Positions 30,849 through 49,550 of a stretch of 64,000 bases of DNA are shown piece after piece (the stretch's first letter is position 1; the number at the start of each line of letters is the position of its first letter). Source of the DNA: Phycisphaerae bacterium (GTDB lineage: Bacteria; Planctomycetota; Phycisphaerae; UBA1845). The notes under the pieces are model-generated. The model did not search any database. It saw only the letters and a list, made by a program, of their open reading frames with translations, and was not told the DNA's origin. The translations under genes were made by a program, and so were the position numbers. Where the stretch lies: positions 38,465 through 102,464 of the forward strand of contig DAORAL010000005.1 in the NCBI GenBank assembly GCA_035344155.1, written 5' to 3'.

Positions 30849-33800
30849 ATGACATTCATCAGGGGCGGAAAAAGCACAATTACTGCACTCACTCTCTGCG
30901 CAGCGTTTCTTATGACGGTGCAATGGTCGGTGGTCTTGGGGCAGTCCAATTCGGACTCATCAGTTGTCGGTTCGGAGGGTGGGGCGGGGCAGCCGGCTGG
31001 ATCTGCGAACAACGGATTCCTGGTTGGCCAGCACAACGCTGATTCAACGATAGTGACGGCTGGCGCTGTCAATGTTTTGGAATTCAAGTTGGCATCGGGT
31101 TCCGATTGCGTCAAGCCAGGCGAAACGGTCACGGTCGAACTTCATCAGCGAAACCTCAGTGAGCCTGCCCGAGGGTATCAGTCGTTTGCTTCGTATGACA
31201 GTGCGATGATGACAAATCTCTCGCAGACATTAGCGCCATCGCCATACATGCGATCCCTGCTGAATTCCGTTGTGGGAGATGATATTGATGCAGCGGCTGG
31301 TATTGATGAGGCGTCACAATCACCGACGGACGCCGATGCACTGCTGGCGACATTGACGTTTACTGCCGGCGGGACTGACGGGGTGACGTCGGTTGAGTTC
31401 CGTACTCACTCGCCGCCGACTCGGTTTTCTGATGTCGATGGTATGGAACTGACGCCCTACCTGATCGCCTCACCTCCGATCGTCATTGACGGGACTGATC
31501 CCGTCATCACATTCTGTCCTCCCGACGTTACCATTGAATGCGACGAATCGACCGACCCTTCCAACACGGGCGAGGCGACCGCAACCGACAATCTCGATCC
31601 GAATCCTTCTGTGACTTATTCCGATAGTGCGGTCGCGGGGATTTGTGCGCAGGAATCTGTTATTACCCGAACATGGACCGTCTCGGATTGCGCCGGAAAC
31701 GAAACAACCTGTGAGCAGGTGATTACCGTTGACGATTCCAGCGCACCGACCGGGACGCAGGGGACGATCGACAGCTGCTATGCGACAGCCCTCGATGCGG
31801 AGGCGGCTGCCATCGCGGCGACGACCGACCTTGCCGACAACTGTACAGCCACCGGTTCGCTGTTGGTCAGTGCAGTGACGGCTGGGACTTGCGATACAAC
31901 GGTCACCGTGACGGTGGCTGACCTCTGCGGTAATTCAACCGATTTCGTCTACAACACACGAATTGATTCGACGCCACCAGCAATTACCTGTCCGGCGCCT
32001 CCGCCGCAGGGCTTGATCATTAGCGAGATCATGGACGGAACCTGGCCAGCAGGCTTACCCAAGTTTGTCGAGCTGACCAATTGCAGTTCCGCCCCAGTCG
32101 ATCTGTCCAGCTACAGCCTGGGCAACATCAACAACGGGTTCTCCACATTGGGATTTGACGCATTGGTACTTTCGGGAATCGTTGCGTCGGGTGATTCGTT
32201 TGTCGTGTCGTACGAAGCCGGCGACTCTCCGGGGCATGGAACCTTTTACGACGTCTACGGATTCGATCCGGATGATTTCTCGCAAGGCGCCTTCATCAAT
32301 GGAAACGATGCGCTGGCACTCTTTTCCGGCGCGGCGTTATCGGGCGACCCGGTTGACGGTAGCGGTGCACCTGTTGTTGATCTTTACGGTGTTGTGGGTG
32401 TTGATGGCGTTGGAGAGGTGTGGGACTACACCGATGGCTTCTCGTTCCGCAGGTCTTATGTGGTCGGTGGGAACGGTGGAAGTTTTAGCCCGTTGGAGTG
32501 GCAGTTTGGCGGTGCTGAATCGCTGGTCGGCAGCAATGACCTCGACGAACTGGCGTTGATGCTCGCCAACACGACCCCGGGTGTGCATGCATGTAGCGGT
32601 GGTGAAGTTGTGGTGTCCACCGATCCCGGAACCTGCGAAGCCGAAGTGACCTTGACGGTTTCGGCGACGGATGATTGTGACGGCGTTCTGCCGGTGGCGT
32701 ACGAAGCCGACTTTGGAAGCGGCTATGTTTCAATAAGCAATCCGTACTCCTTCCCTGTGGGAACTTGGCCGGTCAAAGCGTCGGCCATTGACACCTGCAA
32801 TAACGTGGGTTCCTGCGAATTTTCGGTGACGGTCTTGGATGACGAACCACCGACGGCTACGCAGGGCACCATCAACGATTGTTACGAGACATTCGCTGAA
32901 GCCGAGAGTGCTGCAATCTCCGCGACGACCGACTTGGCCGACAATTGCACGACATCTGGGTTCACGGTGACGGCATCAACGGTTGGAGATTGCAATGCAA
33001 CAGTGACGGTCAGTGTGGCCGACGAAGCCGGAAACGTCACGACGTTCGACTACTTCACGACGGTGGATGGAACGCCTCCGGACATCGCTTGCCCAGCATT
33101 CTCTGTTGGTGGATTCATCATCAGTGAAGTGATTGACGGCACACTCTCAGGCGGGATACCCAAGTTCGTGGAGTTAACGAACTGCACACCGAACACGATC
33201 GATTTGTCTGAATACCGAGTCGCGCTCTATTCCAATGGCGGCCTTACTGAAAGTTCGTCGAGTCTCGCTTACGGTGAGTTGACCGGACTGCTGCCTTCGG
33301 GGGCGTCTTTCGTGATCGCCAATTCCAATAGCGGACCCGGCACTGATTTCCTGGGAATCTACGGCTTTGAAGCAGATTTCTATGACGCAGTTCCCAACAG
33401 CAACGGAGACGACCTTTATCAGCTCTTGAAAGACAATGGGGTGGGCGGTGACATCGTTATCGATGCCCATGGTGTCCTTGGGGTAGATGGTACTGGGGAA
33501 GCTTGGGAGTATCTCGACAGCTACGCATATTCGCTCCCGGGTCGAACGGCGAATGGTGGTGCGTTCAATCCAGCCAACTGGTTCCATGCCGGCGTTGACG
33601 CGCTGGACGGGGCTGGTGCGGCTGGCATTTCTGCGGTGACTACTCCTGGAACGCACACCTGTGCGAGTTCGCTGATCACAAATGCTGATCCGGGGAATTG
33701 CGACGCATTGGTTACTTTTGCCACACCAACTGCGACTGACAATTGTGATCCGGCGCCGACGGTGGACTGCGATCATCTCAGTGGCGAGGTTTTCCCGGTT

Positions 33801-34697
33801 GGTACGACGACCGTCACATGCATGGCCACCGACGAATGTGGCAACACATCCACATGCGAGTTCGACATTGTGGTCAATCCGCTCAACGACTTGGCCGTCA
33901 CGGTCGAACTGCAGCCGAACATCGACACCGGACTTTCTCTGCCCGATACGCTGACGCGGTGCATCACATTCGAGTTGTGGGAATGCGGTGGTCCAAGCTC
34001 GGTGACGGTGAGTGAAGAGATTGAATTCACCATCACGAACAGTGGATTGCCCGGCGATCCCAATATGGCGGTTGGCTCGGCGTTGATCGAGGTTCCGTGT
34101 GGGGCATACTCCTGCATCACTGCCCGCGACCCGCTTCACACGCTTCGTCGCACCGATGAGTCCTTCGGCATCATCGGCAGTCAATATGTCGCTGACTTCA
34201 CCGGTGACGCGAGTGCCGGTGGCGACTGGTTGGTTGGAGGAAATCTCAACGACGACTTCTTTATCGATATTCTCGACTTTGGTGCCTATTCGTTCGAGTT
34301 TGGAAGCATCTACGGAAGTCCCTTCACGGGCGACACCGATTGTCTGACGCCGGCGCCCCATGCTGATATCAGCGGCGACGGTATCGTCGACAACTTCGAC
34401 TTCTCGTTCATCCAAGGAAACTTCCTCGATACGCATGAAGCGAATTGTTGCGGCGATCCAGGTCGACAAGCATCAGGTGACGACGGTCCAGTAACAGAGA
34501 TCACCATTCGCGAATTGCGCCGACGTGGTCTCGGTCACTACGCCATCGCCGACCTCAACAATGACGGCAGCCTCAACTATGAAGACATCGAGGCCTTCGC
34601 CAATGGCGCCCGACCCAAGCCGAAGAAAAGTTTGTCGCCGGACCACAAGGATGAACTGAGGCCGCAAAGCCAAGATCAATCTAGTCCCGAACGCTAA
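30849..34697 (+). CDS. giant secreted protein P1 (~1282 aa): cohesin-like module, HYR-like Ig repeats, two lamin-tail (LTD) domains, C-terminal Ca-loop/dockerin-like module
   Basis: GAGG lies 6 nt before ATG 30849; signal peptide MTFIRGGKSTITALTLCAAFLMTVQWSVVLG. Cohesin-like LEFKLASGSDCVKPGETVTVELHQ. HYR-like [29 protein letters not shown]...ITRTWTVSDCAGNETTCEQVITV. LTD LIISEIMDGTWPAGLPKFVELTNCSSAPVDLSSY and FIISEVIDGTLSGGIPKFVELTNCTPNTIDLSEY. Tail [22 protein letters not shown]...DLNNDGSLNYEDIEAFANG. Confidence 0.8.
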   Translation: MTFIRGGKSTITALTLCAAFLMTVQWSVVLGQSNSDSSVVGSEGGAGQPAGSANNGFLVGQHNADSTIVTAGAVNVLEFKLASGSDCVKPGETVTVELHQRNLSEPARGYQSFASYDSAMMTNLSQTLAPSPYMRSLLNSVVGDDIDAAAGIDEASQSPTDADALLATLTFTAGGTDGVTSVEFRTHSPPTRFSDVDGMELTPYLIASPPIVIDGTDPVITFCPPDVTIECDESTDPSNTGEATATDNLDPNPSVTYSDSAVAGICAQESVITRTWTVSDCAGNETTCEQVITVDDSSAPTGTQGTIDSCYATALDAEAAAIAATTDLADNCTATGSLLVSAVTAGTCDTTVTVTVADLCGNSTDFVYNTRIDSTPPAITCPAPPPQGLIISEIMDGTWPAGLPKFVELTNCSSAPVDLSSYSLGNINNGFSTLGFDALVLSGIVASGDSFVVSYEAGDSPGHGTFYDVYGFDPDDFSQGAFINGNDALALFSGAALSGDPVDGSGAPVVDLYGVVGVDGVGEVWDYTDGFSFRRSYVVGGNGGSFSPLEWQFGGAESLVGSNDLDELALMLANTTPGVHACSGGEVVVSTDPGTCEAEVTLTVSATDDCDGVLPVAYEADFGSGYVSISNPYSFPVGTWPVKASAIDTCNNVGSCEFSVTVLDDEPPTATQGTINDCYETFAEAESAAISATTDLADNCTTSGFTVTASTVGDCNATVTVSVADEAGNVTTFDYFTTVDGTPPDIACPAFSVGGFIISEVIDGTLSGGIPKFVELTNCTPNTIDLSEYRVALYSNGGLTESSSSLAYGELTGLLPSGASFVIANSNSGPGTDFLGIYGFEADFYDAVPNSNGDDLYQLLKDNGVGGDIVIDAHGVLGVDGTGEAWEYLDSYAYSLPGRTANGGAFNPANWFHAGVDALDGAGAAGISAVTTPGTHTCASSLITNADPGNCDALVTFATPTATDNCDPAPTVDCDHLSGEVFPVGTTTVTCMATDECGNTSTCEFDIVVNPLNDLAVTVELQPNIDTGLSLPDTLTRCITFELWECGGPSSVTVSEEIEFTITNSGLPGDPNMAVGSALIEVPCGAYSCITARDPLHTLRRTDESFGIIGSQYVADFTGDASAGGDWLVGGNLNDDFFIDILDFGAYSFEFGSIYGSPFTGDTDCLTPAPHADISGDGIVDNFDFSFIQGNFLDTHEANCCGDPGRQASGDDGPVTEITIRELRRRGLGHYAIADLNNDGSLNYEDIEAFANGARPKPKKSLSPDHKDELRPQSQDQSSPER

Positions 34698-34802
34698 GCA
34701 CGAATATCAGTCTTGAATCCTCAAGATCGAGAATTGGCTTGAGGATAGGAAAACAAAGTTGGCCAGATGCTTGATGCTTTGGCCGAAGAACGGAGGAAGC
34801 AA

Positions 34803-37800
34803 ATGCTTTTCAGAATAAACAACGTCGTATTTGCCAGTGTATTGGCGACTTTTCTTGTCGGCGATACTGCATTGGCAGGGAATAGACCGGCGGGCGTCAT
34901 TCCATTTGAAGGGCGTCCCGATGTCATCGACACGTCTCATGCCTCAATTGCATCAGGGCTGCGGGGTGTCGGGCCAGGAATCCAGGCGGGCGCCGACCAT
35001 ATCGCATCGCAACAGTGCCCCGTCGGGGGGTTCTGCTGGCCACACGGGAACGCGTGCTGTCCCACCGCACCGACCAACATCACCGGCCCCATTGGGCTGG
35101 CATTGTTGCACGCACACACATATACCTCGGACCCGGCGCACCTTGCGGCCGCAGCGATAGGTGGCGACTACGATCTCACGGTACAGTATCCGAATACGGA
35201 GTTTCGTTTGGGCGCGTTCACTGCGTATTTCCTTTGGCAGCTTTCGATCTCGACAGGCGACACCCAGTATCAAGATCATGCTGCAACGGCTTTTTATGAT
35301 GAACTTGCGGCCGGTACATACGGGCCGAGCGACTATGATACGCTCGGTTGGATTGGTGCGGTCGAAGCTTCTCGGACTGGCACGTGGGTCAATCTTCGCC
35401 CTTGGGAATTCCACAATCAGATTCCTGCTGCGGCTGCCTTGGGCAATCCCGGACAAAGCGCGGCTTTTGAAGCCGCCTGCCTGGCTGGACTGAACACGCT
35501 GGATAACACTGACCCGTCATCCGTCTACTCCGACCTAATTGGTGTAGCAGGAGGGGTTCGTGGCCTCGCCTTCGCTGGCACCACCAGCTTCGCTGCAATC
35601 TCTGCCCCAAACCACGCGGGAGTGAATGGTCTTTCTTCGTTGCAGGCACTGGCCGACTATTTGGCGAGTCAACAAAATGCAGATGGATCGTGGAACTGGC
35701 ATTCGGATCTTTCAACCCTCGGCGGTGCGACTGAAACCGACAAAGACACGCAAACGACGGCATATGCCGTTTTGGCGTTGCTGGAGGCAGACGCACTCGT
35801 GGCCTCGGATTACTCGGCGAACATCGAAAACGGTCGAAACTGGCTGCGCACGATGCAATTGCTTGACGGTGGGTTCATGAGCTACCCAGGTGGAGCAGAA
35901 AATACAGAAGTCGAAGCCGAGGCATTGAATGCACTTGCTCCAGATTCATGCACACAAGACAGACTGGAATTCCAATTGGCAAGTGGATCCGAATGCGTGC
36001 AGCCCACCGAAACGGTTGAAGTCGAACTCCACCAGCTCAATTTGTCCGGTCCTGTTCGTGGATACCAGGCATTCGCTCAGTTTGATAGTTCGGTAATGAC
36101 GCATGTTTCCAATGTGTTCACGAGCTCGCCATACTTTTTCATCCTGGAAGATTCTGTGAGCGGAGATGAACTGAATCTTGCAGGCGGAATCGACGACAGC
36201 TTTCAATCGACGACATCTGCAGACGCACTGCTTGCTACCATTTCATTTAGTGCTGGAGCGATTGAAGGGCCGACGACCGTCAGTTTTCGAGCGACTTCAA
36301 TCCCTACTCCCCCATCAAGATTTTCAGATCCGTTTGGTGCGGAAGTTACGCCGTGCCTCGTTCAGTCGCCCACGATCGTGGTTGATGGAACGGCTCCGGT
36401 TATCACTTGCCCAGGTGATTTGACGATCGAGTGCGACGAATCGACCGATCCATCGAACACGGGGTCGGCGACAGCGACCGACAATCTCGATCCCAGCCCA
36501 TTCGTCGACTACAGCGACGTCGTTACGCCAACTGGTTGCGACGAAGAATGGACGATCACGCGCACCTGGACCGCAATCGACTGTGCTGGAAATGAGTCGA
36601 TGTGTGTGCAGACAATTACCGTCGAGGATTCGACGCCACCGGCCGTATACTGCCCGGCAGACACGACGATTGAGTGTGATGAATCAACCGACCCATCCAA
36701 CACTGGGGTGCCAATTGGCTACTTCCAGGGCTTCGAAGATCCTGGCTTCGTCAGCAACACAGAAGCCGACTGGAACGATTACGACAGCGTGGTTTCGCGC
36801 GTCGCTTCCGGGACGGATGGAATCACCTCGAAATCGGGCGGATTCCATGCGGTCGTCGATTCAACTTTGCCGCCCGCGACCACCGGTGCGTTTACGAGAA
36901 TCGGCGGTTACGATTCGACATACGGCACCGGGTTCACCGTTTCGCTTGATCTCTACATGGATTTGTCCGATCCGGCTGTTGTAGCGGATACGTATGGATG
37001 GGATCTTTCGACTGCCGCAAACAATCAGTCAGGCACGCATCTCCAGGATTTCATCTTCCACACTGCATCCGATGCATCCGGAAACATTCTGGTTGGTGGG
37101 AGCAACAACTCCAATTTCACTCGCCGCAACGATATTGCGTCGCTCAACCATCACACAATATCGTCAACGGGCTGGTATACTTTTGAGTGGGTATTCCGTG
37201 ACTTTGGTGACGGAACGTTGGCAGTCGACCTTAATCTCCGCGATGCAGGTGGAAGTTTGCTGTGGACCGAAACGCGCCACGATGCGGGCAACATAATTGC
37301 CACAGTGGTTGGCGGCCATCGTTACATGTGGTTCACATTCCTGGAGGTCGATACGTTGGCAATCGACAACACCACCGTTCTAAATGGGGACCAGGCGACT
37401 GACAACTGTGATACGACTCCAGTTGTTACGCATAGCGACTCTACCGCTCTCGGTAGTTGTCCCCAGAACTCGGTAATCACTCGTACTTGGACAGCGACCG
37501 ATTGTGCCGGCAACATGAGCAGTTGCGATCAGACCATTAATCTGGTCGATACGACCGCACCCGTCATTGGCGCTTGTCCGGCTGACATTACCGTCAACGC
37601 AGATGCGGGAGACTGCGATGCGGTCGTGACATTCACGCCGCCAACGGCGACCGACAACTGCGATGGCGCACCGACGGTGGTTTGTGACTGGCCCAGCGGG
37701 TCGACGTTCCCATCGGGAACCACGTTGGTCACATGCACGGCCACGGATGGTTGCAGCAACTCGTCGGCTTGCGACTTCAACGTAACGGTTAATTCGTCCA

Positions 37801-38555
37801 ACGACTTGACGGTGGCAGTTGAACTCGATCCGGCTGGGTCGATGCCAGCTTCCATGACGCGGTGCATCACATTTGAATTGTGGGAATGCCCGGGTGGAGC
37901 GCCGGCAGCGACAGTAACCGCTGATATGGTGTTCTTGAACGGTCTTGCTTCCGACACGATCGATATTCCGTGCGGAAATTACACCTGCATCACTGCCCGC
38001 GATGAATTGCACACGCTGCGGCGGACCGACCTGGATGACTTTGGCATCTCAGGGACCGAGTACGTGGCCGACTTTACCGCGAACGGCGCAACCGATGACG
38101 ACTCGCTCATTGGCGGAAACCTGAACGACGATTTCTTCATCGACATTCTGGACTTCGGCACGTTCTCGGCTCAGTGGTCGACAACACCGTCACCTGACAC
38201 GCCATGTCCGGTTGGCGGTGCCCATGCCGACATCAACGGTGATGCGATTGTCGACAACTTCGACTTCTCGTTCATCCAAAACAACTTCCTTGAGACTCAC
38301 GAAGCAAACTGCTGCGGCGCGCTTAATCGTGAGGCGGGTGAATTCGATGGTCCTGTGACCGATATTTCGATCGCGGAACTTCGACGTCGCGGATTGGGTC
38401 ATCTCGCAGTGAGCGATTTGAACCACGACGGTCGGTTGAACATGGACGATGTGGTCGAGTTTGCAAATGGAGCACGGCCCCAGAAGCTACAACCGGATCA
38501 TGTTGATCTTAAAGACGCCCAGCCGCAAAGCGTTATCCGGCGTCCGGATCGGTAG
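34803..38555 (+). CDS. giant secreted protein P2 (~1250 aa): prenyltransferase/terpene-cyclase-like alpha/alpha repeats, cohesin-like module, HYR-like repeats, unassigned middle domain, C-terminal module paralogous to P1
   Basis: GGAGGA lies 5 nt before ATG 34803; signal peptide [25 protein letters not shown]. Repeats [40 protein letters not shown]. Cohesin-like [27 protein letters not shown]-like [29 protein letters not shown]. Tail [22 protein letters not shown]...[19 protein letters not shown]. Confidence 0.8.
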
Positions 38556-38610
38556 CATCTGGAATCAAAGGGCGAGTTAGCTCTTCGTTCCCTTACCACG
38601 AGCTAGGGGT

Positions 38611-38781: not shown

Positions 38782-39396
38782 ATGGTGAGCAATAAACCTC
38801 AGTTAACGATTGTTGTCATTGCAGGCTTGTTTGGTTTGTCGGTCGCAAGTGCGAGCGGTGGTCCGATCAGCCTGGAGTGGCGGCCGGCGTCTCAGTCTGT
38901 TGTTGTTGGCGATACGATCAACATCGGACTCTACGCGGTCTCTGACGATAGCGTGGACGATGAAATCTCGGTGATGGATGTCATTCTTGAGTGGGACCCA
39001 TCGTTCATGAGCCTTCAAGGGCTCGACAACAATGGCCCATACAACTGGCTTTCGTCATCGTTTCCAGCCACAGCGATCGGTGGGTTGAACCCGGATTATT
39101 CCGATGGCGACGCGACTTATACTGCTCGGAGCCAGTTCATACCCCCGTCGGCTATTGCGACGCCCGGTGGATTGCTGGTGACGACGGTTCAGTTTCTCGC
39201 GCTTGCCGAAACGCCAGGGACGATGCTCACTATTCCCGAGTCAAAGGGCTTGGCTGAGACTTCAGTGATTGGCGACATCCCAGGATTCGACGTCCATAGT
39301 TCGCTGGGAAGCGCCATGGTGACGATTACTCCCGAACCGGCATCGTTCATGTTGTTGCTTGCAGGTGCAACAATGGTGATTCGTCGCAGGGCTTAG
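38782..39396 (+). CDS. P3: secreted cohesin-like single-domain protein with PEP-CTERM sorting signal (204 aa)
   Basis: AGGAG lies 7 nt upstream; signal peptide LTIVVIAGLFGLSVASA. Cohesin-like ISLEWRPASQSVVVGDTINIGLYAVS...VMDVILEWDPSFMSLQG. C-terminus TPEPASFMLLLAGATMVIRRRA. Confidence 0.8.
   Translation: MVSNKPQLTIVVIAGLFGLSVASASGGPISLEWRPASQSVVVGDTINIGLYAVSDDSVDDEISVMDVILEWDPSFMSLQGLDNNGPYNWLSSSFPATAIGGLNPDYSDGDATYTARSQFIPPSAIATPGGLLVTTVQFLALAETPGTMLTIPESKGLAETSVIGDIPGFDVHSSLGSAMVTITPEPASFMLLLAGATMVIRRRA
39328..39393 (+). other. PEP-CTERM motif (PEP + TM helix + Arg cluster) at the C-terminus of P3
   Basis: T-PEP-ASFMLLLAGATMVI-RRRA is the last 22 codons of the ORF. Confidence 0.75.
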
Positions 39397-40403: not shown

Positions 40404-42821
40404 ATGCGTCGTTCAAACACGATTGCACGGAGACCAATGCTCGTGAAAAACCACGCACACCATTTAGGGCTGCTGGCGTGTTTTGCCTTCGGTGCCTTTG
40501 TTTTTGCGAACGTCGCCCGTGCGAACGTCCGGTACTCGTTTGTCTTTCGCAGCGATCAGGTCGTTCCGCCAACGGCAAGCATCTCAGCCGGTCAAGGGGC
40601 GGCTACACTGAACACTGCTGAAACGGAGTTGGTTTTCGCTGTGCTGCATGGTGTTTCTGGCGCGACGTCTGCGACGGTTCACTCGGGCGAGCTCGGAACC
40701 AATGGTCCCGTCGAGTTTACGCTGACCATGGTCAACGCAACAACTTTCGCTGGCACGTGGGCCATCGATTCGAGTGGAATCGCCGACCTCCAAGCCGGGC
40801 GACTGTACGTGCAGATTGAATCCGACCTTTACCCGGACGGGGAAGTCCGCGGGCAGATCGATCTGAACCCCAATCCAGTGCCGGGCGATGTGATCATCAC
40901 GGAGATCATGTACGACCCGCTTTCGCCCGAAGGGAATTACCCTGATCCACCATTCGCAGCCAACTCTGAGTGGATCGAATTGTTCAATACCACCTTCACC
41001 GACATCGAAATTGGCGGATGGTTTTTCCAGGATGAGGACGTCGACGAATCGGCTCCCTGTACATTGCTGCGCAGCGGTACATTTCCACCATTCGTATTGC
41101 GATCATTCCAAACGGTTGTTGTTATTCCGGATGGCGCAGAACTCAATGGCGAGTCGCCAAGCGTCGCCGACTTCAAGACATCCTGGAACCTCGGCGCCAA
41201 TATCAATGTGATTCAACTCAACGCGGATGGAACAACGGGTGGTGCGATCGTCGGGCACAACCTTTCGAACAATCCGTTCAGCGACAACTTCGACAACGAT
41301 TTGCCGCTGATTCCAGACCCACCGCTGTGGTCACCGTGTGGCACATTCAATCGAAGCGACAACGAAATCCTCACGCTCAACGATGGCGACCAGATTATCG
41401 ACGTCGTTAATTTCGGCGACGAGTTTGCAATCGAGGTCGGCGCGATGGATTGGCCCAATCCCGTTCCCGGTGCCAGCATCCAACTTGTGCCAGCCGACTA
41501 TCCTGCGCTTCCCCCGATCGATGTCAGCAGTTTCAGCGCATTGGGCAATGACGATCCACACAACTGGATCGGGCATGAATCAGGCGACCTAGCCGGTGGG
41601 ACTCAACAGTCGGTTCAGGCGGGTGTTTACAAAGGTGATGACATCGGGTCTCCCGGGTTCTTGTACGGTGCATCAACGGGGAATCAGCCGCCAGTTGCGG
41701 TGGGCGAACAAGTGGTCATGACTCCCGGGCAGTCCAGACTGGTTACGATGGACGGAACAGACAATACCCGGCCCTTCTTCGGTCTGCTGTTGTTCTTGAT
41801 CAAGTCACTCCCGCAGAACGGTCATCTGATCGACATTGCAGGCGGTAACCATGTGATCACGGCTGGTGATATCAGCGGGAATGGTTACCTGATGCCGATG
41901 ATTCCGTTTGACCTGGTTCGCTATACAAACAATGGAACTTGCGGGTTGGATTCGTTTTCATTCGCGACATTCGATGGAGTCGTCGAGTCGGCTCCGGTGG
42001 ATGTCGAATTCTTCGTTCAGTGCGGTGAGGTTGTCATCACTGAAATCATGTACAACCCCGATTCGACCGAAAACAGTCCGTCAGAAGCTGAATGGATCGA
42101 GCTGTACAACAACACAGATTATCCAATCGACTTGGGCGGTTGGTATTTTGCCGACGACGTTACGCGTAGCGGCGACTTTCCTTCGTTTATCCTTGGCGCC
42201 AAATCGGCGGTGGTGGCGATACCGGCTGTCGCGGACCCGAATGAGTACCTAAGCGGCTGGGGTTCGCAATTTGTGCACATCACCACCAATGGCGACACTG
42301 GTAACGGTGGCATAACCGGATCGAATCTTTCAAATGGTGGTGAGTCACTTCGCCTGGTCAAGCCCGGTGGAAGCACGCCGCTTGTCTCGGATGCAGTCTT
42401 TTACAAGAGCGGCTTTGTTGATCCCATGTGGCCGCAGATGGGGATTGACGGTCCAAGCATCTACGTTCGACCGTCGGTTTCGTACAACGCGCTCGCGAAC
42501 GATAACCCGTTGATATGGGAGAGGTCGATTAACGGAATCGACGGTGCGGCATTGGTTGAGTTGACGGCGGTCTATGATGGCGACGATATCGGGTCACCTG
42601 GATTCCTTCAGGGATTGATTCAGGGACCATGCCTGTCGTTCGGATTCAGTCATGACGGCAACCGGGATTTGAGCGTTGATGAAAAGGACTACGCGCACTA
42701 CGACCTCTGCTCGTTTGGCCCCGGTACGGACATCCCGCTGAACTGCGACTGCTTTGATACGGACGGCGACGGGGACCTTGACCTCGTTGACTTCGCCGGT
42801 TTTCAGGCGGCGTTTGATTGA
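40404..42821 (+). CDS. P5: secreted CHRD + 2x lamin-tail-domain protein with dockerin-like tail (~805 aa)
   Basis: Signal peptide HHLGLLACFAFGAFVFANVARA. CHRD: FRSDQVVPPTASISAGQGAATL...ATVHSGELGTNGPV...GRLYVQIESDLYPDGEVRGQI. LTD: VIITEIMYDPLSPEG...SEWIELFNTTFTDIEIGGWFF and VVITEIMYNPDSTENSPSEAEWIELYNNTDYPIDLGGWYF. Tail CDCFDTDGDGDLDLVDFAGFQAAFD. The track start (TTG 40305) was replaced by ATG 40404; ATG 40437 is also possible. Confidence 0.75.
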   Translation: MRRSNTIARRPMLVKNHAHHLGLLACFAFGAFVFANVARANVRYSFVFRSDQVVPPTASISAGQGAATLNTAETELVFAVLHGVSGATSATVHSGELGTNGPVEFTLTMVNATTFAGTWAIDSSGIADLQAGRLYVQIESDLYPDGEVRGQIDLNPNPVPGDVIITEIMYDPLSPEGNYPDPPFAANSEWIELFNTTFTDIEIGGWFFQDEDVDESAPCTLLRSGTFPPFVLRSFQTVVVIPDGAELNGESPSVADFKTSWNLGANINVIQLNADGTTGGAIVGHNLSNNPFSDNFDNDLPLIPDPPLWSPCGTFNRSDNEILTLNDGDQIIDVVNFGDEFAIEVGAMDWPNPVPGASIQLVPADYPALPPIDVSSFSALGNDDPHNWIGHESGDLAGGTQQSVQAGVYKGDDIGSPGFLYGASTGNQPPVAVGEQVVMTPGQSRLVTMDGTDNTRPFFGLLLFLIKSLPQNGHLIDIAGGNHVITAGDISGNGYLMPMIPFDLVRYTNNGTCGLDSFSFATFDGVVESAPVDVEFFVQCGEVVITEIMYNPDSTENSPSEAEWIELYNNTDYPIDLGGWYFADDVTRSGDFPSFILGAKSAVVAIPAVADPNEYLSGWGSQFVHITTNGDTGNGGITGSNLSNGGESLRLVKPGGSTPLVSDAVFYKSGFVDPMWPQMGIDGPSIYVRPSVSYNALANDNPLIWERSINGIDGAALVELTAVYDGDDIGSPGFLQGLIQGPCLSFGFSHDGNRDLSVDEKDYAHYDLCSFGPGTDIPLNCDCFDTDGDGDLDLVDFAGFQAAFD

Positions 42822-43667
42822 CCTGAAACGACTCTTCTTTCCTGAAGCGTTCTTCCAAACGGCAGTGGGATCGCGTTGCCCACAACGCATTGATTGTTTG
42901 CAGGTTAGGCCCTGCCAATTCAATCCGCTCCCAGTACCAGGCATTGATCGACTTTCCATTTGGTTTGGGAAATTCTCTACAGGACTTCGGCCCCCCCCCG
43001 AATTCCATGCATGGCTTTTTAACGATACCGGTTGCCCTCGATAGCGGTACATGTTCGCTTTACACTTGGGCGGTTGCTTCGACGTACGGTGTGTCTACGA
43101 CGCCAGTCATCTTCTGGCGATGATGAGGCTATGGCAGCCGAGCATGCTGGTATGGCATCCAGCTTGCTTTTCAGGCATTGGTGTCTTCGCGTCGCAATAT
43201 CGCATCCAACAACACATCAGTATTCGACAAGTCGGACGGATGTCGCCAAGTATTTCGTAGACGTTGGCACCGTACTTCCGTCAAAACTTCGAGACATCGA
43301 TCGAATCACACGCGATCTGGTTCTGGCGAACTTTCTGAACCCCAAAGGAGCCCATGCAAAAGTAGCCTTGGTTTTGAGCGTGCCGATTCAGCTTCCGAAT
43401 TTCAATAGCGATGTGCCATTTGACACCTCGTCATCGCCAAATAACGCCATCGGTTGAGCTGCATTCGGCAGATGCTGTGGTTTGCATTGGCGAATTTGCA
43501 CGGCATAAGTCCGGTGCGGACCGTCGCTCTTGACGGTGTTTTGCGGCTTCGATCTTGCTAGAATGTGAACGGTCGGAATCTGCGGTCGCATTCTCATGAT
43601 TCGAGCATGCCCGCCCATTTTGATGAGAATCGATCATCGATACTGTCACTAAAGGAGAAGCGTTTCC

Positions 43668-46600
43668 ATGCATCATCCAACCGATCGCCGATTTCGCCCA
43701 GATTCAGTCTTGATTGCAGTAGCGGTAGTTGCGGCGGCTCTGGTGTTTGGTGCGGCAACAGGTCGAGCGTGTGCCGCCGATTGCAATTCAAACGGAATTG
43801 AAGACGCCGTGGAGTTATCTCCAGGGGAGCAGATTGCCAAGCTTGTGGCGAATGATGCGTCGCTGGACGCCAATTTTGGCAACAGTGTCGCGATGGACGG
43901 AGATACTGCCATCATCGGTGCGTGGCGCGATGACGAAAATGGAAGCTTTAGCGGCGCTGCATACGTTTTCCGGGATAACGGCGGCAGTTGGCAGCAGGTA
44001 GCGAAGCTAACAGCCGACGACGCGGTGGAAAACAACTTCTTTGGGGTCAGCGTTGCGATCAGCGGGAATACCGTTGTCGTCGGGGCATATGGGAGCGCTG
44101 ACCCACTGTCGCTGGTGGGCTCCGCGTATGTGTTTCGTGAGCAAAACAATAGCTGGCAACAAATTGCCAAGCTCACGGCTGATGACGGCGCGGACCACGA
44201 TTACTTTGGCATTGGTTCAACGGGCGGTATTGCCATCACTGGCGACATGATCGTGATCGGCGCCGTTGGCGACCAGGACAATGGGTTGTGGAGCGGCTCG
44301 GCGTACGTTTTTCGTGAAATCCAAGGGGTTTGGCAGCAAACCACAAAACTCACGTCCAACGATGCGTTGGCAAATGACTTTTTCGGCGCAACGGTCGCGC
44401 TAAGTGGCGGTACGGTGATCATCGGGGCCTATGGAAGCGGTGGAACAAACAATGGTGCGTCTTACGTGTTCAGGGAAATCAACGGCGATTGGCAACAGAT
44501 CGGCAAGCTCAGCGATGCAAACCCGGCGGCTGAAGGCCGTTTTGGCTGGAGTGTCGCGATCAGCGAAGACACCGCCATCGTAGGCTCGCCCGAAAGCAAC
44601 GAAAATGCAAACGGAAGTGGCGTGACTTACGTGTTTCGGGAAATCGAAGGCGCCTGGCAGCGGATTGCCAAACTTGTTGCCGACGACGGAGAGGCTTTCG
44701 ATTGGTTCGGCGCCAGTGTCGCGATCAACGGTAATATCGCCATCATCGGCGCACCTGGGCGTGACAACGGAGACCTTGATTTCGGTGCGGCATACGTTTT
44801 CCGTGAAGATGGCGGGGTCTGGCGGCAGATCGCGACGTTCACTGCTGCCGACGGTACCTCAGATGATGACTTCGGCAACAACGTCGCGATGGCTGGCAAC
44901 ATTGCCGTCTTTGGCGTGCCGAGCCACGGTGACGGGCTCTTGAACAGAAGCGGTGCAGCCTATGTCTTCAAAATTCCGAGAACGGACTGCAATGCCAATG
45001 GCGTGCTCGATGAGTGCGATATTGCCAGCGCGACGAGTCCGGATTGCAACAGCAACGGCGTGCCCGACGAGTGCGAAGCGGACTGCAATTCAAATGGTAT
45101 TCCCGATGAATGCGATTTTGCAGAACTGACAAGCACCGATTGCAACTTAAATGGCCTGCCAGACGAATGTGAATTAATTGGAAACGACTGCAATTCCAAT
45201 GACTACCCCGATGAATGCGATATCGCCGGATTGACGAGCAGCGACTGCAACAGAAACAACGTGCCCGACGAGTGTGAGCCGCCGACTGCAGACTGCAATG
45301 TGAATGGAGTACCGGACGTATGCGAATACCAGTTGACCTTTTCAGGCCAAAAGATCATCTCGATCGACGCTGATGGCGCGAATGCTGTCTACACGGCGGA
45401 TCTGGACGGCGACGGGGATCTCGATGTGCTCTCGGCATCGAATGCGGATGACAAGATTGCCTGGTACGAAAACATTGACGGCGCGGGTACGTTCGGGCCG
45501 CAGCGTATTATCAGCAGCACCGCAGCCGGCGCGAATTCCGTCTTTGCCGCCGACTTGGACGGCGATGGAGATGCGGATGTCATCTCCTCGTCATCCAGTG
45601 ATCGAAAGATTGCGTGGTACGAAAACATCGATGGTCTCGGAGCCTTTGGATTACCAACGGTTTTCGAGATCGGATTGGACACGCCGATCTCGGTGATCGC
45701 CGCAGATTTGGATGGCGATCTCGACCTGGACATTCTCTTTGCGACGAGAGGATTTGCCAACGTCGCATGGTTTGAAAACACTGATGGCTTGGGAGCGTTC
45801 GGGCCCATCGAGATCATTGATGACTTTTCAGGTTTGGTGAGCTCGGCGATACCGGCAGACTTGGACGGCGACGGTGATCTCGATGTCCTCGCAACATTGG
45901 ATTTCGATGATACGGTTTTGTGGTACGAAAACACGGACGGGTTGGGAACCTTCGACTATTGGCAAGTGATCACGACGGTCGCCAACGGCGCGTTGTCTGC
46001 ATTTGCCGCCGACCTGGACGGTGATGGCGACCTTGATGTCCTTTCTGCGTCGAAGTTGGATAGTAAAATTGCGTTCTACGAAAACACCGACGGTTTGGGC
46101 AGTTTCGGCCCACAACAGATCATTTCCACCGATATGGATCGTCCGGCTTCCGTTTCTGCAAGGGACTTGGATGGTGACGGCGACCTTGATGTACTGTCTG
46201 CGTCGTCAGGTGACGACAAGATTGCCTGGTATGAAAACACCGGCGGACTAGGGCAGTTCGGAGCCCAGCAGGTCATCACTGTCGCTGCGGACGGTGCGAA
46301 ATCGGTCATCACTGCGGACCTCGACGGCGACGGTGACTTCGATGTGCTATCTGTATCGCCAGATGACGACAAGATTGCCTGGTACGAAGTTGAGACCGTC
46401 AACGATTGCAACAACAATGACGTGCACGATGAATGCGACATCGCCGGCGCCACGAGCCTCGATTGCAACAACAACGCCGTGCCTGACGAATGTGAACTGG
46501 TCTTGAATGATTGCAACATGAATGGCGTGCCCGATGACTGCGACGTTGAACAGGCGGCCAGCCTCGACTGCGATGGCAACGGTGTGCCGGACGAATGCCA

Positions 46601-49550
46601 ACCCGACTGCAATTTGAACGGGGTAGCCGACGCCTGCGACATCGCAGGCATGAACAGCGATGACTGTAATACAAATCATGTTCCCGATGAGTGCGAACCG
46701 GATTGCAACGGCAACGGGGTTGCGGACGGTTGTGATATCGCAGCGGGTTCGGCCAGCGATTGCGACAACAACGGTACGCTGGACGAGTGTGACATTGCGG
46801 AGGGGACTGCTATTGATTGCAACGGAAACGGGACGCCGGATCAATGCGAATTGAACATGGTGTCTTCGGATCAGAACGTCTTGAGCACGACTGCTGATGC
46901 CGCAACCTCAGTTTATGCGGCAGACATTGATGGTGACGGAGATGCCGATGTTCTTGCGGCTGCGTACGGCGATGACGAGATCACCTGGTATGAAAACATC
47001 GACGGTCTGGGCACGCTCGGAGCTCAACAAATTCTCGCTGACGATGCTGATCATGTAAGGGCAGTTTTGACCGCCGATATGGATGGGGACGGCGACGCCG
47101 ATGTTTTGTCCGCGTCGAGGCCACTCGCCTGGTACGAAAATCTGGACGGATTGGGGACCTTTGGCCCAGAGCGTCCCATTGCAACGATGACATCTTATAC
47201 GACGGCCAATTCAATCTTTGCAGTCGACATGGACGGTGATGGAGATACCGACGTGTTGGCCGGGATGGATGTCGACTGTAGGTTGGTATGGTACGAAAAC
47301 AGTGACGGACTCGGTAACTTTGGACTTCCGCATTACATTGACGCGGACCTCTGTGCTCTCTCTGTCTTTGCGGCGGATCTTGATGGCGATGGGGATGCCG
47401 ATGTGCTGGCTGGACCATCGGGCTACAACGTGGTTTCATGGTATGAGAACTCGGACGGGGCCGGAAGTTTTGGACCTCCTCAGCCGCTTCACTCATCCGG
47501 CTATGGTGCAAGGTCAGTTTTTGCCGTCGATGTGGACGGGGACGACGACTTCGATGTGCTGTCGATATTAATTGGAAACGACAGCATCACCTGGCACGAA
47601 AACCTCGACGGGCAAGCAAACTTCGGAGCCGAACAGGTCATCACGAACGCCGCCGGTTCTGCGACTTCGCTCTTTGCCATCGATCTGGATTCAGACGGTG
47701 ATGCTGATGTGCTCTCCGCATCCGGCTTACATGACGAAATCGTCTGGTATCAAAACAATGATGGAATGGGCGAATTCGGCGCCGCGCAATTGGTCGCATC
47801 GAATGTCCTTCTGCCAAGCTCGGTGTTCGCTGCAGACCTGGACGGGGACGGCGATCTTGATGCGCTATCAGCATCGCAAAATGACGACAAGATTGCCTGG
47901 TACAAGAACAGCACGATCAACGACTGCAACAACAACAAGGTTCCGGACGACTGCGACATTGCGAGCGGGACAAGCACGGACTTCAACCAGAACAGCGTGC
48001 CAGACGAGTGTGAAGACTGCAACATGAATCACATCCTCGACTACCTTGAATTGGTGAACAACGACTGCAATTCCAATGGCATTCCCGACGAGTGTGACGA
48101 GGCCGTCAGCGAGAGCAAAGACTGCAATAACAACGGAATCTTCGATGGATGCGAAATTGCAGGCGGAAGTGCGGATGATTGCAATGCAAACCTCGTGCCA
48201 GATGAATGCGAATTGCAGGGGGTTTTCTCAGCCGATGAGGTGATCACGGCTGCCGCGAACGGTGCTTTCGCTGTTATCGCTACAGACATCGACGGCGACG
48301 GCGATGCTGACGTCCTTTCGGCGTCGGCCAACAATCCTAACATCGCGTGGTACAAAAACACGGATGGGTTAGGCATATTCGATAGTCAGCACCCAATCAG
48401 TGACTCTGGCACCGGTGTCAGCTCGATCGATTCGGCCGATCTGGATGGCGATGGCGATGTGGATGTGTTGTTGGCCACGGGGTCCATCTTCAGCAGTTTC
48501 GTTTCGTGGTATGAGAATACCGACGGGCTCGGCGAATTTGGGCCGCGAAATGTAATCTCCAGTGGAGTTCATAGAGAACATTCGGCGTCTGCTGCGGACT
48601 TGGACGGAGACGGAGACGCCGATGTCTTATCCGGGTCTTGGAATGACCTTGCGTGGCGCGAAAACACGGATGGTCTCGGGACTTTCGGTCCAAGGACTGT
48701 GATCTCGGATCTTGTTACAAATGTCGTCTCGGTGGTCTCTGCTGATCTGGATGGGGACGGGGACCTCGACGTCATTTCTGTGTCCTCAAACGACGGAAAG
48801 GTCGCGTGGTATCAAAACATCGATGGACTGGGGAGTTTCGGACCGCAGCAGCTCATCGCCGGACCCGTTACTGTTCGATCGATCCGTACTGCAGATCTGG
48901 ACGGTGATGGTGATGCCGATGTGTTGTACGCAAGGAGCTCCAGTGTGGCTTGGCACGAGAATACGGATGGGTTGGGAACCTTCGGACCGTCGCAACTAGT
49001 CGGCGAGGGCGCTCAGACGGCGCGGTCTGTCTTTGCGATTGACCTGGATGGTGATGGCGACATCGATGTACTTTCTGCCTCGTCTGGCGATGACAAGATC
49101 GCATGGTATGAAAACACGGACGGGCTGGCCAACTTTGGTCCGCAGCAGATCATCTCGACGTCAGCCGATGGCGCGCGATCGGTTTTTGCAGCCGACCTGG
49201 ATGGCGATGGAGATGCCGACGTGCTATCCGCGTCCTACGACGATGACACCATCGCCTGGTATGCGAATATCGGCTACGACTGCAACCGCAACCGCGTTCC
49301 GGATGATTGCGAAATCGATACCGATGGCGACGGTCTGATCGACGGCTGCGATCGCTGCGCAGGTGGAATGGCGAGCGGAGACCGGGACGGAAACGGCATC
49401 ATTGATCTTGCCGATTTCACAGGATTGGAGCCGTGCCTGGTCGGACCTGAGAGCGATCTCAATGAAGGTTGTGAATGTTTCGATTTCGATCTTGACGGTG
49501 ACAATGACTTGAATGACTTCGCGGTGTTTCAGGCGATCTTTGTGCCATAG
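43668..49550 (+). CDS. P6: 1960-aa secreted protein with four 7-repeat FG-GAP/VCBS beta-propeller units separated by Cys-rich DCNxNGxPDECE repeat arrays; dockerin-like tail
   Basis: Signal peptide SVLIAVAVVAAALVFGAATGRACA. Seven FGxSVAxxGxxxxxGA...YVF repeats (~43850-44965). Three sets of seven ADLDGDGDxDVLSAS..DDKIAWYENxDGLGxFG repeats (~45340-46390, ~46860-47905, ~48220-49265). Cys-rich arrays at ~44985-45330, ~46400-46853 and ~47919-48215. Tail GDRDGNGIIDLADFTGLEPCLVGP...CECFDFDLDGDNDLNDFAVFQAIF. Confidence 0.85.
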   Translation: MHHPTDRRFRPDSVLIAVAVVAAALVFGAATGRACAADCNSNGIEDAVELSPGEQIAKLVANDASLDANFGNSVAMDGDTAIIGAWRDDENGSFSGAAYVFRDNGGSWQQVAKLTADDAVENNFFGVSVAISGNTVVVGAYGSADPLSLVGSAYVFREQNNSWQQIAKLTADDGADHDYFGIGSTGGIAITGDMIVIGAVGDQDNGLWSGSAYVFREIQGVWQQTTKLTSNDALANDFFGATVALSGGTVIIGAYGSGGTNNGASYVFREINGDWQQIGKLSDANPAAEGRFGWSVAISEDTAIVGSPESNENANGSGVTYVFREIEGAWQRIAKLVADDGEAFDWFGASVAINGNIAIIGAPGRDNGDLDFGAAYVFREDGGVWRQIATFTAADGTSDDDFGNNVAMAGNIAVFGVPSHGDGLLNRSGAAYVFKIPRTDCNANGVLDECDIASATSPDCNSNGVPDECEADCNSNGIPDECDFAELTSTDCNLNGLPDECELIGNDCNSNDYPDECDIAGLTSSDCNRNNVPDECEPPTADCNVNGVPDVCEYQLTFSGQKIISIDADGANAVYTADLDGDGDLDVLSASNADDKIAWYENIDGAGTFGPQRIISSTAAGANSVFAADLDGDGDADVISSSSSDRKIAWYENIDGLGAFGLPTVFEIGLDTPISVIAADLDGDLDLDILFATRGFANVAWFENTDGLGAFGPIEIIDDFSGLVSSAIPADLDGDGDLDVLATLDFDDTVLWYENTDGLGTFDYWQVITTVANGALSAFAADLDGDGDLDVLSASKLDSKIAFYENTDGLGSFGPQQIISTDMDRPASVSARDLDGDGDLDVLSASSGDDKIAWYENTGGLGQFGAQQVITVAADGAKSVITADLDGDGDFDVLSVSPDDDKIAWYEVETVNDCNNNDVHDECDIAGATSLDCNNNAVPDECELVLNDCNMNGVPDDCDVEQAASLDCDGNGVPDECQPDCNLNGVADACDIAGMNSDDCNTNHVPDECEPDCNGNGVADGCDIAAGSASDCDNNGTLDECDIAEGTAIDCNGNGTPDQCELNMVSSDQNVLSTTADAATSVYAADIDGDGDADVLAAAYGDDEITWYENIDGLGTLGAQQILADDADHVRAVLTADMDGDGDADVLSASRPLAWYENLDGLGTFGPERPIATMTSYTTANSIFAVDMDGDGDTDVLAGMDVDCRLVWYENSDGLGNFGLPHYIDADLCALSVFAADLDGDGDADVLAGPSGYNVVSWYENSDGAGSFGPPQPLHSSGYGARSVFAVDVDGDDDFDVLSILIGNDSITWHENLDGQANFGAEQVITNAAGSATSLFAIDLDSDGDADVLSASGLHDEIVWYQNNDGMGEFGAAQLVASNVLLPSSVFAADLDGDGDLDALSASQNDDKIAWYKNSTINDCNNNKVPDDCDIASGTSTDFNQNSVPDECEDCNMNHILDYLELVNNDCNSNGIPDECDEAVSESKDCNNNGIFDGCEIAGGSADDCNANLVPDECELQGVFSADEVITAAANGAFAVIATDIDGDGDADVLSASANNPNIAWYKNTDGLGIFDSQHPISDSGTGVSSIDSADLDGDGDVDVLLATGSIFSSFVSWYENTDGLGEFGPRNVISSGVHREHSASAADLDGDGDADVLSGSWNDLAWRENTDGLGTFGPRTVISDLVTNVVSVVSADLDGDGDLDVISVSSNDGKVAWYQNIDGLGSFGPQQLIAGPVTVRSIRTADLDGDGDADVLYARSSSVAWHENTDGLGTFGPSQLVGEGAQTARSVFAIDLDGDGDIDVLSASSGDDKIAWYENTDGLANFGPQQIISTSADGARSVFAADLDGDGDADVLSASYDDDTIAWYANIGYDCNRNRVPDDCEIDTDGDGLIDGCDRCAGGMASGDRDGNGIIDLADFTGLEPCLVGPESDLNEGCECFDFDLDGDNDLNDFAVFQAIFVP

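Follow-up and report, generated by a model that had tools for sequence, protein, structure and literature searches.

We analysed a 64,000-nt stretch of the Phycisphaerae contig DAORAL010000005.1 (hereafter the window), in which an island at 30849-49550 encodes six secreted-type proteins, P1 to P6. These proteins combine cohesin-fold modules, dockerin-like calcium-loop tails, and a PEP-CTERM C-terminus, and they form a candidate cohesin-dockerin assembly of the cell surface. The six genes were located as follows.

30849-34697, plus strand: P1, 1282 aa; the open reading frame (ORF) opens at 30780
34767-38555, plus strand: P2, 1262 aa
38782-39396, plus strand: P3, 204 aa
39553-40308, plus strand: P4, 251 aa
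40305-42821, plus strand: P5, up to 838 aa; the start is likely later, at 40404 or 40437
43668-49550, plus strand: P6, 1960 aa

An initial annotation of this DNA had described six consecutive plus-strand genes with N-terminal signal peptides. The ORFs were found as described, and the peptide strings quoted from them occur in the proteins. All six N-termini carry a positive charge and then a run of 12 or more hydrophobic residues; these signal-peptide-like N-termini were called from hydropathy and by eye. The nearest database proteins belong to metagenome-assembled genomes (MAGs) of Phycisphaerae/Phycisphaerales and share 98-99% identity; one of them, the P1 ortholog P0022 from a Phycisphaerales MAG (98% identical), is named 'lamin tail domain-containing protein'. 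Two pairs of island proteins are paralogous, P1 with P2 (E 1e-111, with about 56-57% identity across the module and the C-terminal ~350 aa) and P3 with P4 (58% identity, E 6e-70). An 846-nt gap between P5 and P6 (42822-43667) holds no convincing ORF, which fits P6 as a separate transcription unit and a local addition.

Cohesin-fold modules of P1 to P4

Each of the proteins P1 to P4 carries one module of about 145-160 aa with a predicted cohesin fold, and the four modules fall into two subfamilies, P1/P2 and P3/P4.

31065-31505, plus strand: cohesin-fold module of P1 (aa 73-219), from AF2 and Foldseek
35958-36401, plus strand: cohesin-fold module of P2 (aa 398-545), from a match to the profile hidden Markov model (HMM) A3 at 1e-57
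38857-39330, plus strand: cohesin of P3, P3/P4 type, directly before the PEP-CTERM tail
39637-40116, plus strand: cohesin of P4, P3/P4 type, from AF2 and Foldseek on full-length P4

The Pfam Cohesin family (PF00963) is a nine-stranded jelly-roll beta-sandwich of about 140-170 aa with a gathering cut-off of 24.1 bits. The AF2 model of the P1 module reached a pLDDT of 95.3 and a pTM of 0.90, and in the Foldseek comparison with the PDB all 50 matches listed were cohesins (TMq 0.74-0.76, TMt up to 0.81, probability 1.00). Full-length P4 was modelled with a pLDDT of 88 and a pTM of 0.82, residues 32-186 forming a beta-sandwich that is followed by three C-terminal helices. Cohesins of types I, II, and III made up 49 of its 50 matches listed, with the sole non-cohesin at rank 49 (probability 1.00, TMt up to 0.81, identity 8-16%). 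The matches of both P4 and the P1 module include the non-cellulosomal cohesins 2jh2, 2vo8, and 2xdh. The structure prediction and fold comparison suggested in the initial annotation thus returned cohesins as the top PDB matches, and the nine-stranded cohesin jelly roll was recovered by AF2 and Foldseek for P4 and the P1 module. For the P2 and P3 modules we infer the same fold from their 56-64% identity to the modelled paralogs.

Cohesin matches also appear among the relatives of these modules. In the P1/P2 module set, which comprises 34 proteins from the full-length P1 query, 18 matched Pfam Cohesin at E <= 0.01 (best 1.6e-10), while P1 and P2 themselves do not; seven of the 110 P3/P4 relatives did so as well (best 4.5e-10). 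The window modules score below the Pfam cut-off while their relatives match, which makes them divergent members of a cohesin-related superfamily. The P3/P4 family alignment was built from 21 homologs, and a profile-profile comparison linked the two module families with a probability of 88% and an E value of 3e-6 over the first 63 columns, at the N-terminal side. In a word-index search, the 150-aa P1 module gave no match and full-length P1 retrieved 214 relatives, so the miss of the module reflects a limit of the index and not an absence of relatives. As judged from the predicted structures, the four window modules are divergent cohesins of two subfamilies. Of the four ~120-aa cohesin-type modules described in the initial annotation, the fold therefore held; the length was too short, and none of the modules passes the Pfam threshold.

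The most conserved part of the P3/P4-type cohesin lies at aa 86-118 of P4 (about 39808-39906) and in the same columns of P3. It reads NNGPYxWLSS ... GLNxDxxDGDAxYTA, with W92, N106, D111, G112, and A114 invariant. This acidic inter-strand segment looks like a candidate metal-binding or ligand site, a feature not known to us from classical cohesins.

Calcium-loop tails

Dockerins of the Pfam family Dockerin_1 (PF00404, cut-off 22.9 bits) span ~60-70 aa and contain two 12-residue calcium loops (D/N at positions 1, 3, 5, 9, and 12), each with a helix after it. Paired calcium-loop tails end five of the proteins, P1, P2, P4, P5, and P6, and are of two kinds, a P1/P2 type and a P4/P5/P6 type.

34236-34433, plus strand: dockerin of P1, two calcium loops, one of them DISGDGIVDNFDF
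34434-34616, plus strand: conserved extension of P1, HEANCCG and a third calcium loop DLNNDGSLNYEDI
38112-38297, plus strand: dockerin of P2, above the Pfam Dockerin_1 cut-off
38298-38480, plus strand: Cys-Cys and third-loop extension of P2, counterpart of P1 34434-34616
40117-40305, plus strand: Cys-containing dockerin-like tail of P4, two calcium loops
42624-42818, plus strand: Cys-containing calcium-loop tail of P5, with the loop motif and Cys pattern common to P4 and P6
49347-49547, plus strand: dockerin-like tail of P6

The P1/P2-type unit spans ~145 aa and consists of two classical dockerin loops, HEANCCG, the third calcium loop, and a ...GARP end. Besides the vicinal Cys-Cys in HEANCCG, it has another conserved Cys between the two dockerin loops, and among 23 tails C91 and C92 were invariant or nearly so. 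Of the 141 proteins fetched, 45 have this unit at their very end, with varied cargo (HYR, beta-helix/NosD, LTD). When its profile was compared with the PDB, solved dockerins were among the top matches, with E values of only 0.004-0.05. A module of ~100 aa without a Pfam match stands directly before the dockerin (P1 33882-34205, P2 37797-38081; pattern NDLxVxVEL ... CITARD), which is the position of the X module in type II/III X-dockerin pairs.

The P4/P5/P6-type tail is shorter, at ~65 aa, and has two loops together with conserved Cys residues (...C... CxC-FDxDxDGDxDLxDF); in the AF2 model of P4 it forms helices at residues 202-211, 219-228, and 238-249. Loop pairs were found by regular expression in P1, P2, P4, and P6, and only the second loop in P5, whose first loop, DGNRDLSVDEKD, was judged by eye to fit the pattern. 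The Dockerin_1 cut-off was passed by P2 (23.4 bits for the whole protein, 28.2 bits for the tail alone), with P1 (20.4 bits, E 6e-4), P6 (19.7 bits, E 1e-3), and P4 (15.0 bits) below it; 17 of the 110 P4 relatives matched the family, with a best E value of 4e-15. The P4-type tail profile scored best on EF-hand pairs (5e-7). The loop and profile evidence supports a place for all five tails in the dockerin / EF-hand-pair class. The paired dockerin-like tails of the initial annotation were accordingly recovered in all five proteins, with the P5 first loop taken by eye; 'dockerin-like' is a fair name for each, and by the curated threshold 'dockerin' applies to P2 only.

The confident prediction of P4 as one unit, with its pTM reached despite ~30 disordered N-terminal residues, and the few residues that separate its cohesin from its tail would suit an intramolecular clasp, in which the tails of P1, P2, and P4 bind the cohesin of their own chain and leave it autoinhibited or stabilised. 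We consider such a clasp highly improbable, since the two modules lie ~900 residues apart in P1 and ~570 in P2, and P3, P5, and P6 hold just one of the two parts. Binding between chains remains the preferred reading of these modules.

P3 as the candidate anchor

39331-39393, plus strand: PEP-CTERM tail of P3, PEPASFMLLLAGATMVIRRRA

The C-terminus of P3, ...TITPEPASFMLLLAGATMVIRRRA, contains a P-E-P motif, a hydrophobic helix, and a basic cluster (RRR); the pattern at this end is also given as ...TPEPASFMLLLAGATMVIRRRA. The PEP-CTERM end reported in the initial annotation is thus plain in the protein, though its scores fall marginally below the model cut-offs (TIGR02595, 15.7 against 16; PF07589, 15.8 against 20.7). 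The same pattern ends the P3 orthologs of the related loci L001, L003, L005, L007, and L008. PEP-CTERM was matched at E <= 0.01 by 11 of the 110 relatives (best 5.9e-6), and one P3/P4 relative is annotated 'PEP-CTERM sorting domain-containing protein [Planctomycetota]'. In the family alignment, the cohesin is common over its full length to P3-like and P4-like proteins. Essentially only the tail sets them apart, being PEP-CTERM in the former and dockerin-like in the latter, a difference that fits two alternative ways of attachment. From these features, P3 is proposed as the cell-anchored receptor and P4 as an adaptor.

Conservation of a four-gene core and spread of the families

A core of four genes has the same order in the window and in four other genomes (L001/L012, L003/L013, L007, and L008): a large protein with a P1/P2-type cohesin, a second such protein, a P3/P4-type cohesin with PEP-CTERM, and a P3/P4-type cohesin with a calcium-loop tail. 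L001/L012 and L003/L013 are two JGI metagenome contigs of 370 and 158 kb, L007 spans 244 kb, and L008 is a close Phycisphaerae MAG. At the conserved loci, P1 orthologs share 48-64% identity and P4 orthologs ~53%; partial versions of the core occur in L005, L006, L009, and L010. In L001 the core is followed by a P5-like CHRD/LTD protein, which there has two P1/P2-type cohesins as well. P5 stands only sometimes beside the core and P6 never in the loci examined; conservation thus extends to the four core genes, with P5 and P6 added locally. Co-conservation of the genes, which the initial annotation had made a test of its reading, was therefore borne out for the core in four other genomes, though not for the full set of six. 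Two tandem small paralogous ORFs lie just after the core at L003 11909-12735 (also L004 3073-3794); they have acidic Cys-rich C-termini (...CEDDCGxDxxCFxxCFTCATAIVNYVY), no Pfam match, and no counterpart in the window.

The P3/P4 module family comprised 980 clusters at 50% identity in an exhaustive profile search, 803 of them at E <= 1e-10, and the window modules of this type have no NCBIfam model. Most members are 200-450 aa long, with the module right after the signal peptide. Among the 110 relatives scanned, 11 matched PEP-CTERM, three IPTL-CTERM, 17 Dockerin_1, and seven Cohesin; pattern matching on 167 family proteins found a PEP-CTERM-like end in 30 and tail calcium loops in 73. Two or three modules occur in 17 of these 167, and the multi-cohesin proteins are about 1000-1300 aa long. 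A scan of species-representative genomes with a tighter module alignment retrieved four loci only, so the taxonomic spread is poorly sampled.

These data bear on a simpler explanation, namely that P1 to P6 act independently as surface or secreted adhesins, without binding to each other, and were clustered by gene duplication and shared regulation. The cohesin fold would then be a generic beta-sandwich spacer or a ligand- or glycan-binding domain, and the calcium-loop tail a Ca2+-dependent folding or stabilising cap, or a tag for another envelope component. P1 and P2 are recent paralogs, as are P3 and P4, so duplication alone accounts for part of the clustering. EF-hand pairs as well as dockerins are matched by the tails, the window cohesins lie below the Pfam cut-off, and Peer et al. 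are said to have found, in 2009, that cohesins and dockerins without a known role occur widely outside cellulosomes. However, the fold search matched cohesins in particular, not beta-sandwiches generally, and cohesin and dockerin-type modules co-occur throughout both families. The core order is moreover kept in genomes whose proteins are only 50-65% identical, and a PEP-CTERM cohesin and a dockerin-tailed cohesin kept behind two large proteins that each have a cohesin and a dockerin are more than duplication explains. We therefore regard independent adhesins as unlikely compared with an assembly of the core proteins.

Cargo domains and a tail-bearing protein outside the island

The large proteins combine their modules with the following cargo.

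30849-34697, plus strand: P1, in order, signal peptide, cohesin, HYR-like repeats, LTD, HYR-like, LTD, HYR, beta module, dockerin, Cys-Cys and third calcium loop
32010-32525, plus strand: LTD region 1 of P1, Pfam LTD 1.5e-20, best at aa 383-493; bounds from sequence landmarks
33111-33605, plus strand: LTD region 2 of P1, the second LTD stretch, with the paralogous start motif GFIISEVIDG
34767-38555, plus strand: P2, in order, signal peptide, ~360-aa N-terminal domain, cohesin, HYR_4C/HYR repeats, middle domain, HYR, beta module, dockerin, Cys-Cys and third loop
40524-40865, plus strand: CHRD of P5, Pfam CHRD 6e-17
40884-41675, plus strand: LTD region 1 of P5, Pfam LTD 1e-28
42024-42620, plus strand: LTD region 2 of P5, Pfam LTD 1e-28
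43668-49550, plus strand: P6, in order, signal peptide, four 7-bladed FG-GAP/VCBS propellers with Cys-bracketed loop runs between them, dockerin-like tail
58132-60486, plus strand: a seventh protein with a P4/P5/P6-type tail (60304-60483), containing Golvesin_C, a GHL10 glycosyl-hydrolase-like domain, and CarboxypepD_reg

Pfam matched LTD in two stretches of P1, HYR also in P1, and HYR or HYR_4C in both P1 and P2. The blades of P6 (seven FG-GAP_2 and 21 FG-GAP_3) add up to 28, in four groups of seven, and the calcium-motif positions, an N-terminal seven and three further groups of seven, likewise give four propellers. A regular expression found 23 C[ND]xN motifs in P6, mostly in DCNxNGxPDECD loops between the propellers (for example, aa 441-560, 914-1065, and 1420-1520). 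These loops have the EF-hand D/N spacing (1, 3, 5, 9, 12) with Cys at 2 and 11, and they matched no Pfam family beyond spurious weak matches. The N-terminal ~360 aa of P2 gave alpha/alpha toroid matches below threshold only (E 0.005-0.05), together with an NCBIfam toroid match of 2.4e-7 (30 bits against a cut-off of 300), and comparison with PDB sequences returned nothing useful; the toroid is weakly supported. A thioester (TED) reading of this domain was rejected, as no CGEQ-type motif is present. The cargo list of the initial annotation (four LTDs, CHRD, HYR, and four propellers) was thus confirmed except for the toroid, which is sub-threshold only. More broadly, its proposed profile-HMM searches recovered LTD, CHRD, HYR, FG-GAP, and the P2 Dockerin_1, with Cohesin, PEP-CTERM, and the other tails below their cut-offs; by thresholds alone, only part of its module list would stand.

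The GHL10-like protein lies 8.6 kb downstream of the island and ends in a Cys-containing two-loop tail, GDYDADGDVDADDY ... DLDLDDDVDLEDF. The P4/P5/P6-type tail is therefore not confined to the island and also occurs on an enzyme-like protein. This gives some weight to a degradative machine resembling a cellulosome or the 'planctosome' hypothesised for other Phycisphaerae, in which the island scaffold and adaptors would hold dockerin-tailed hydrolases (peptidases and glycosidases encoded elsewhere) on a polymer. The published planctosome model includes dockerin-tailed M12B and M14 peptidases (PMC6461901), and the relatives P0060, P0097, and P0113 carry right-handed beta-helix/NosD cargo (PF13229, PF05048) in the cohesin...dockerin frame. 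Neither the core, the six island genes, nor the syntenic loci contain a recognisable hydrolase, however; the examined peptidase and other enzymes of the window lack a calcium-loop tail, and the cargo domains present are of adhesion type. A degradative machine is on these grounds quite improbable. The HYR, LTD, CHRD, and integrin-like FG-GAP propeller cargo, together with the lack of a hydrolase inside the island, suggests a role in adhesion or the extracellular matrix rather than in polymer breakdown.

Proposed assembly on the cell surface

We favour, at slightly better than even confidence, the reading that the island, as a conserved Phycisphaerae gene cluster, encodes a non-cellulolytic assembly of cohesins and dockerins on the cell surface. 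After Sec export, an exosortase from a locus elsewhere would process P3 and attach it to the envelope, where its single cohesin would be displayed as a receptor. The dockerin tails would bind cohesins with Ca2+. P1, P2, and P4, which hold both a cohesin and a dockerin, could act as adaptors or chain into a network, and P5, P6, and the GHL10-like protein would be dockerin-only cargo. That there are two cohesin subfamilies and as many tail types suggests two specificities, probably in the form of two separate binding pairs, like types I and II of cellulosomes. If modules of the same chain are taken not to bind one another, the P3/P4 cohesin would go with the P1/P2 tail; the opposite pairing, however, agrees better with an L001 protein that combines two P1/P2-type cohesins with a P4-type tail.

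A similar model was reached independently for the Nemodlikiaceae (PMC6461901), which counts in favour of the assembly. Several results weigh against it. As to the modules, none of the four in the window reaches the Pfam Cohesin cut-off (P4 is best at 13.6 bits, and the others have no match), and the P3/P4 module profile found no solved cohesin among PDB sequences, so its cohesin link is visible only by fold and via relatives; with the whole P4-family profile, the EF-hand matches of the tail swamped the result. For the P4/P5/P6-type tails, scores as generic EF-hand pairs equal or exceed those as dockerins, and the P5 tail gave only weak EF-hand matches and none to Dockerin_1. The high pTM of full-length P4 may reflect packing of the tail on the cohesin of its own chain. 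As to the gene cluster, a P5-like protein does not follow the core in L003 or L007, and a P6-like propeller protein stands beside the cluster in none of the loci examined, at odds with a six-gene unit. Promoter and terminator scans gave no more than shuffled sequences, which leaves an operon structure with co-transcription putative. No exosortase turned up among those window ORFs that were scanned, which are not all of them, nor did one appear in the Pfam gene lists covering 10 kb around the cluster in the examined relatives.

The initial annotation had interpreted the island as a self-contained surface scaffold of undescribed function, a reading that is partly supported. Its cohesin folds, dockerin/EF-hand-class tails, and PEP-CTERM member were borne out, as was co-conservation of the core in the same order, and both adjectives have to be dropped. 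The scaffold is not self-contained, given the same tail on the GHL10-like protein outside, the lack of an exosortase in the scanned ORFs, and the position of P5 and P6 outside the core. Nor is it undescribed, as the planctosome had already been hypothesised for Phycisphaerae (PMC6461901) and non-cellulolytic cohesin/dockerin proteins of Limihaloglobus sulfuriphilus had been noted (PMC11557425).

Regulators and other genes of the window

The genes beside the island include possible regulators, and respiratory genes unrelated to the island occupy the left end of the window.

23209-24261, plus strand: WYL/HTH protein, a possible regulator beside the cluster
24471-25181, plus strand: receiver and GerE/LuxR regulator
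25365-25988, minus strand: receiver and GerE/LuxR regulator
25991-28747, minus strand: PAS histidine kinase
794-8257: left-end respiratory genes, with a 4Fe-4S protein, a multihaem cytochrome c, and an alginate-export-type porin
5873-8257, minus strand: NorB-type nitric oxide reductase with a fused cytochrome c-like domain

The WYL protein shares 66% identity with that upstream of the cluster in L012, and GerE proteins flank the cluster in L012, L013, and L007. The regulators beside the cluster in these loci lie at L012 602-2413, L013 6023-6310, and L007 22398-23701; the GerE form is small and stand-alone in L012 and L013, and of receiver length in the window and L007. Judged from position only, the WYL and GerE/LuxR neighbours may mark a conserved regulatory link. 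Between the divergent PAS histidine kinase and P1 lie ~2.1 kb (28748-30848) with neither a convincing ORF nor an Rfam match, and the Rfam scan of the whole window gave zero matches. In L012, L013, and L007, too, there is a gap before the P1-like gene, of 1.0-1.2 kb; sequence similarity in the gap upstream of P1 was found only in the close relative L008 (82% over 495 nt).

Implications

Cohesin-dockerin pairs are among the strongest protein-protein links known, and to our knowledge they have been seen outside cellulolytic Firmicutes in genomes, with no known role. The locus offers a compact testable set of four cohesins in two subfamilies, six tails of two types, and one clear cell-anchoring signal, and new orthogonal cohesin-dockerin pairs would be useful parts for protein engineering. 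A curated model of the P3/P4 type would re-annotate many 'hypothetical proteins', mostly small secreted ones with PEP-CTERM-like ends or calcium-loop tails.

We also put forward, tentatively and with more doubt than the assembly itself, a general mode of non-covalent display in the Planctomycetota. Small single-cohesin receptors fixed by exosortase through PEP-CTERM or IPTL-CTERM would serve as universal receptors for many dockerin-tailed secreted proteins, and P1, P2, and P4 would chain into a Ca2+-dependent adhesion or matrix mesh. If this were true, the display system would be a Gram-negative counterpart of the sortase-anchored scaffoldins, with the four-gene cassette as its core and a receptor family of ~980 sequence clusters that no curated model captures.

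Comparison with known systems

Anchoring and adaptor scaffoldins of cellulosomes include SdbA and OlpB of C. thermocellum, the ScaA-ScaB-ScaC series of A. cellulolyticus, and the sortase-anchored ScaE of R. flavefaciens. The island resembles the clostridial and ruminococcal systems in its predicted cohesin fold (TM 0.7-0.8 to type I), C-terminal two-loop dockerins, a candidate anchored cohesin protein, two-module adaptors, and more than one cohesin/dockerin class. In contrast, its host is a Gram-negative-type planctomycete, and the anchor is PEP-CTERM instead of SLH or LPXTG. Each island cohesin stands alone in its protein without tandem arrays, the modules are 9-20% identical to solved cohesins, nearly every large subunit holds both modules, and neither a carbohydrate-binding module (CBM) nor a glycoside hydrolase occurs in the island. 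A cellulosome is defined by a tandem-cohesin scaffoldin with dockerin-bearing plant-cell-wall hydrolases; the island lacks this combination, and the sole enzyme-like tail bearer found is the GHL10-like protein.

Another related system is that of the structures 2jh2, 2o4e, 2w1n, and 2vo8, non-cellulosomal cohesin-dockerin complexes of secreted GH84 and GH33 glycoside hydrolases from Clostridium perfringens. There, too, single cohesins and dockerins sit on large secreted multi-domain proteins without a dedicated scaffoldin, so that the subunits bind each other, and cohesins of this organism are among the fold matches of the island modules. Their subunits, however, are enzymes of a Gram-positive pathogen without an anchored receptor, whereas the island cargo is of adhesion type and a PEP-CTERM cohesin is present.

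Outside the Bacillota, a 2024 survey found that Limihaloglobus sulfuriphilus, a Phycisphaerae isolate, has one Coh-Doc-Coh protein and 13 fusions of dockerins to unusual domains (PMC11557425), and a cellulosome-like complex was inferred for Ca. Stygibacter of the Cloacimonadota (PMC8542988). Both share with the island cohesins and dockerins fused to unusual domains and inferred non-cellulolytic roles. The architecture differs, as Limihaloglobus has its single Coh-Doc-Coh protein, and the tandem cohesins of Stygibacter carry CBMs and a C-terminal domain of the type IX secretion system (T9SS) type. A conserved operon with a PEP-CTERM cohesin is reported for neither, and the literature search found no paper joining cohesin, dockerin, and PEP-CTERM.

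A further close system is the planctosome, hypothesised by Andrei et al. (2019, ISME J) for the Nemodlikiaceae, a Phycisphaerae family (PMC6461901). The model was drawn from InterPro domains in one MAG and does not mention PEP-CTERM or exosortase; besides the peptidases, it includes a protein that joins an LTD to a cohesin, as well as an adaptor built of dockerin, HYR, and cohesin, and it proposes a Ca2+-dependent cell-surface assembly with an LTD tether for peptide degradation (PMC6461901). The general idea is thus not new. The two systems share the class of bacteria and non-cellulolytic cohesin/dockerin proteins, and P1 (cohesin, two LTDs, HYR, dockerin) and P2 fit the model by domain description alone. 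The island departs from it in having a small PEP-CTERM cohesin as a candidate anchor and a small adaptor with cohesin and dockerin, and in the lack of a tailed peptidase in the window. What is new here is that modules below curated thresholds are cohesins at the level of the predicted fold, that a PEP-CTERM cohesin is the likely anchor, that a four-gene core is conserved, and that the small-cohesin (P3/P4) family is so large. The PEP-CTERM cohesin offers a more concrete candidate anchor than the LTD tether of the 2019 planctosome model.

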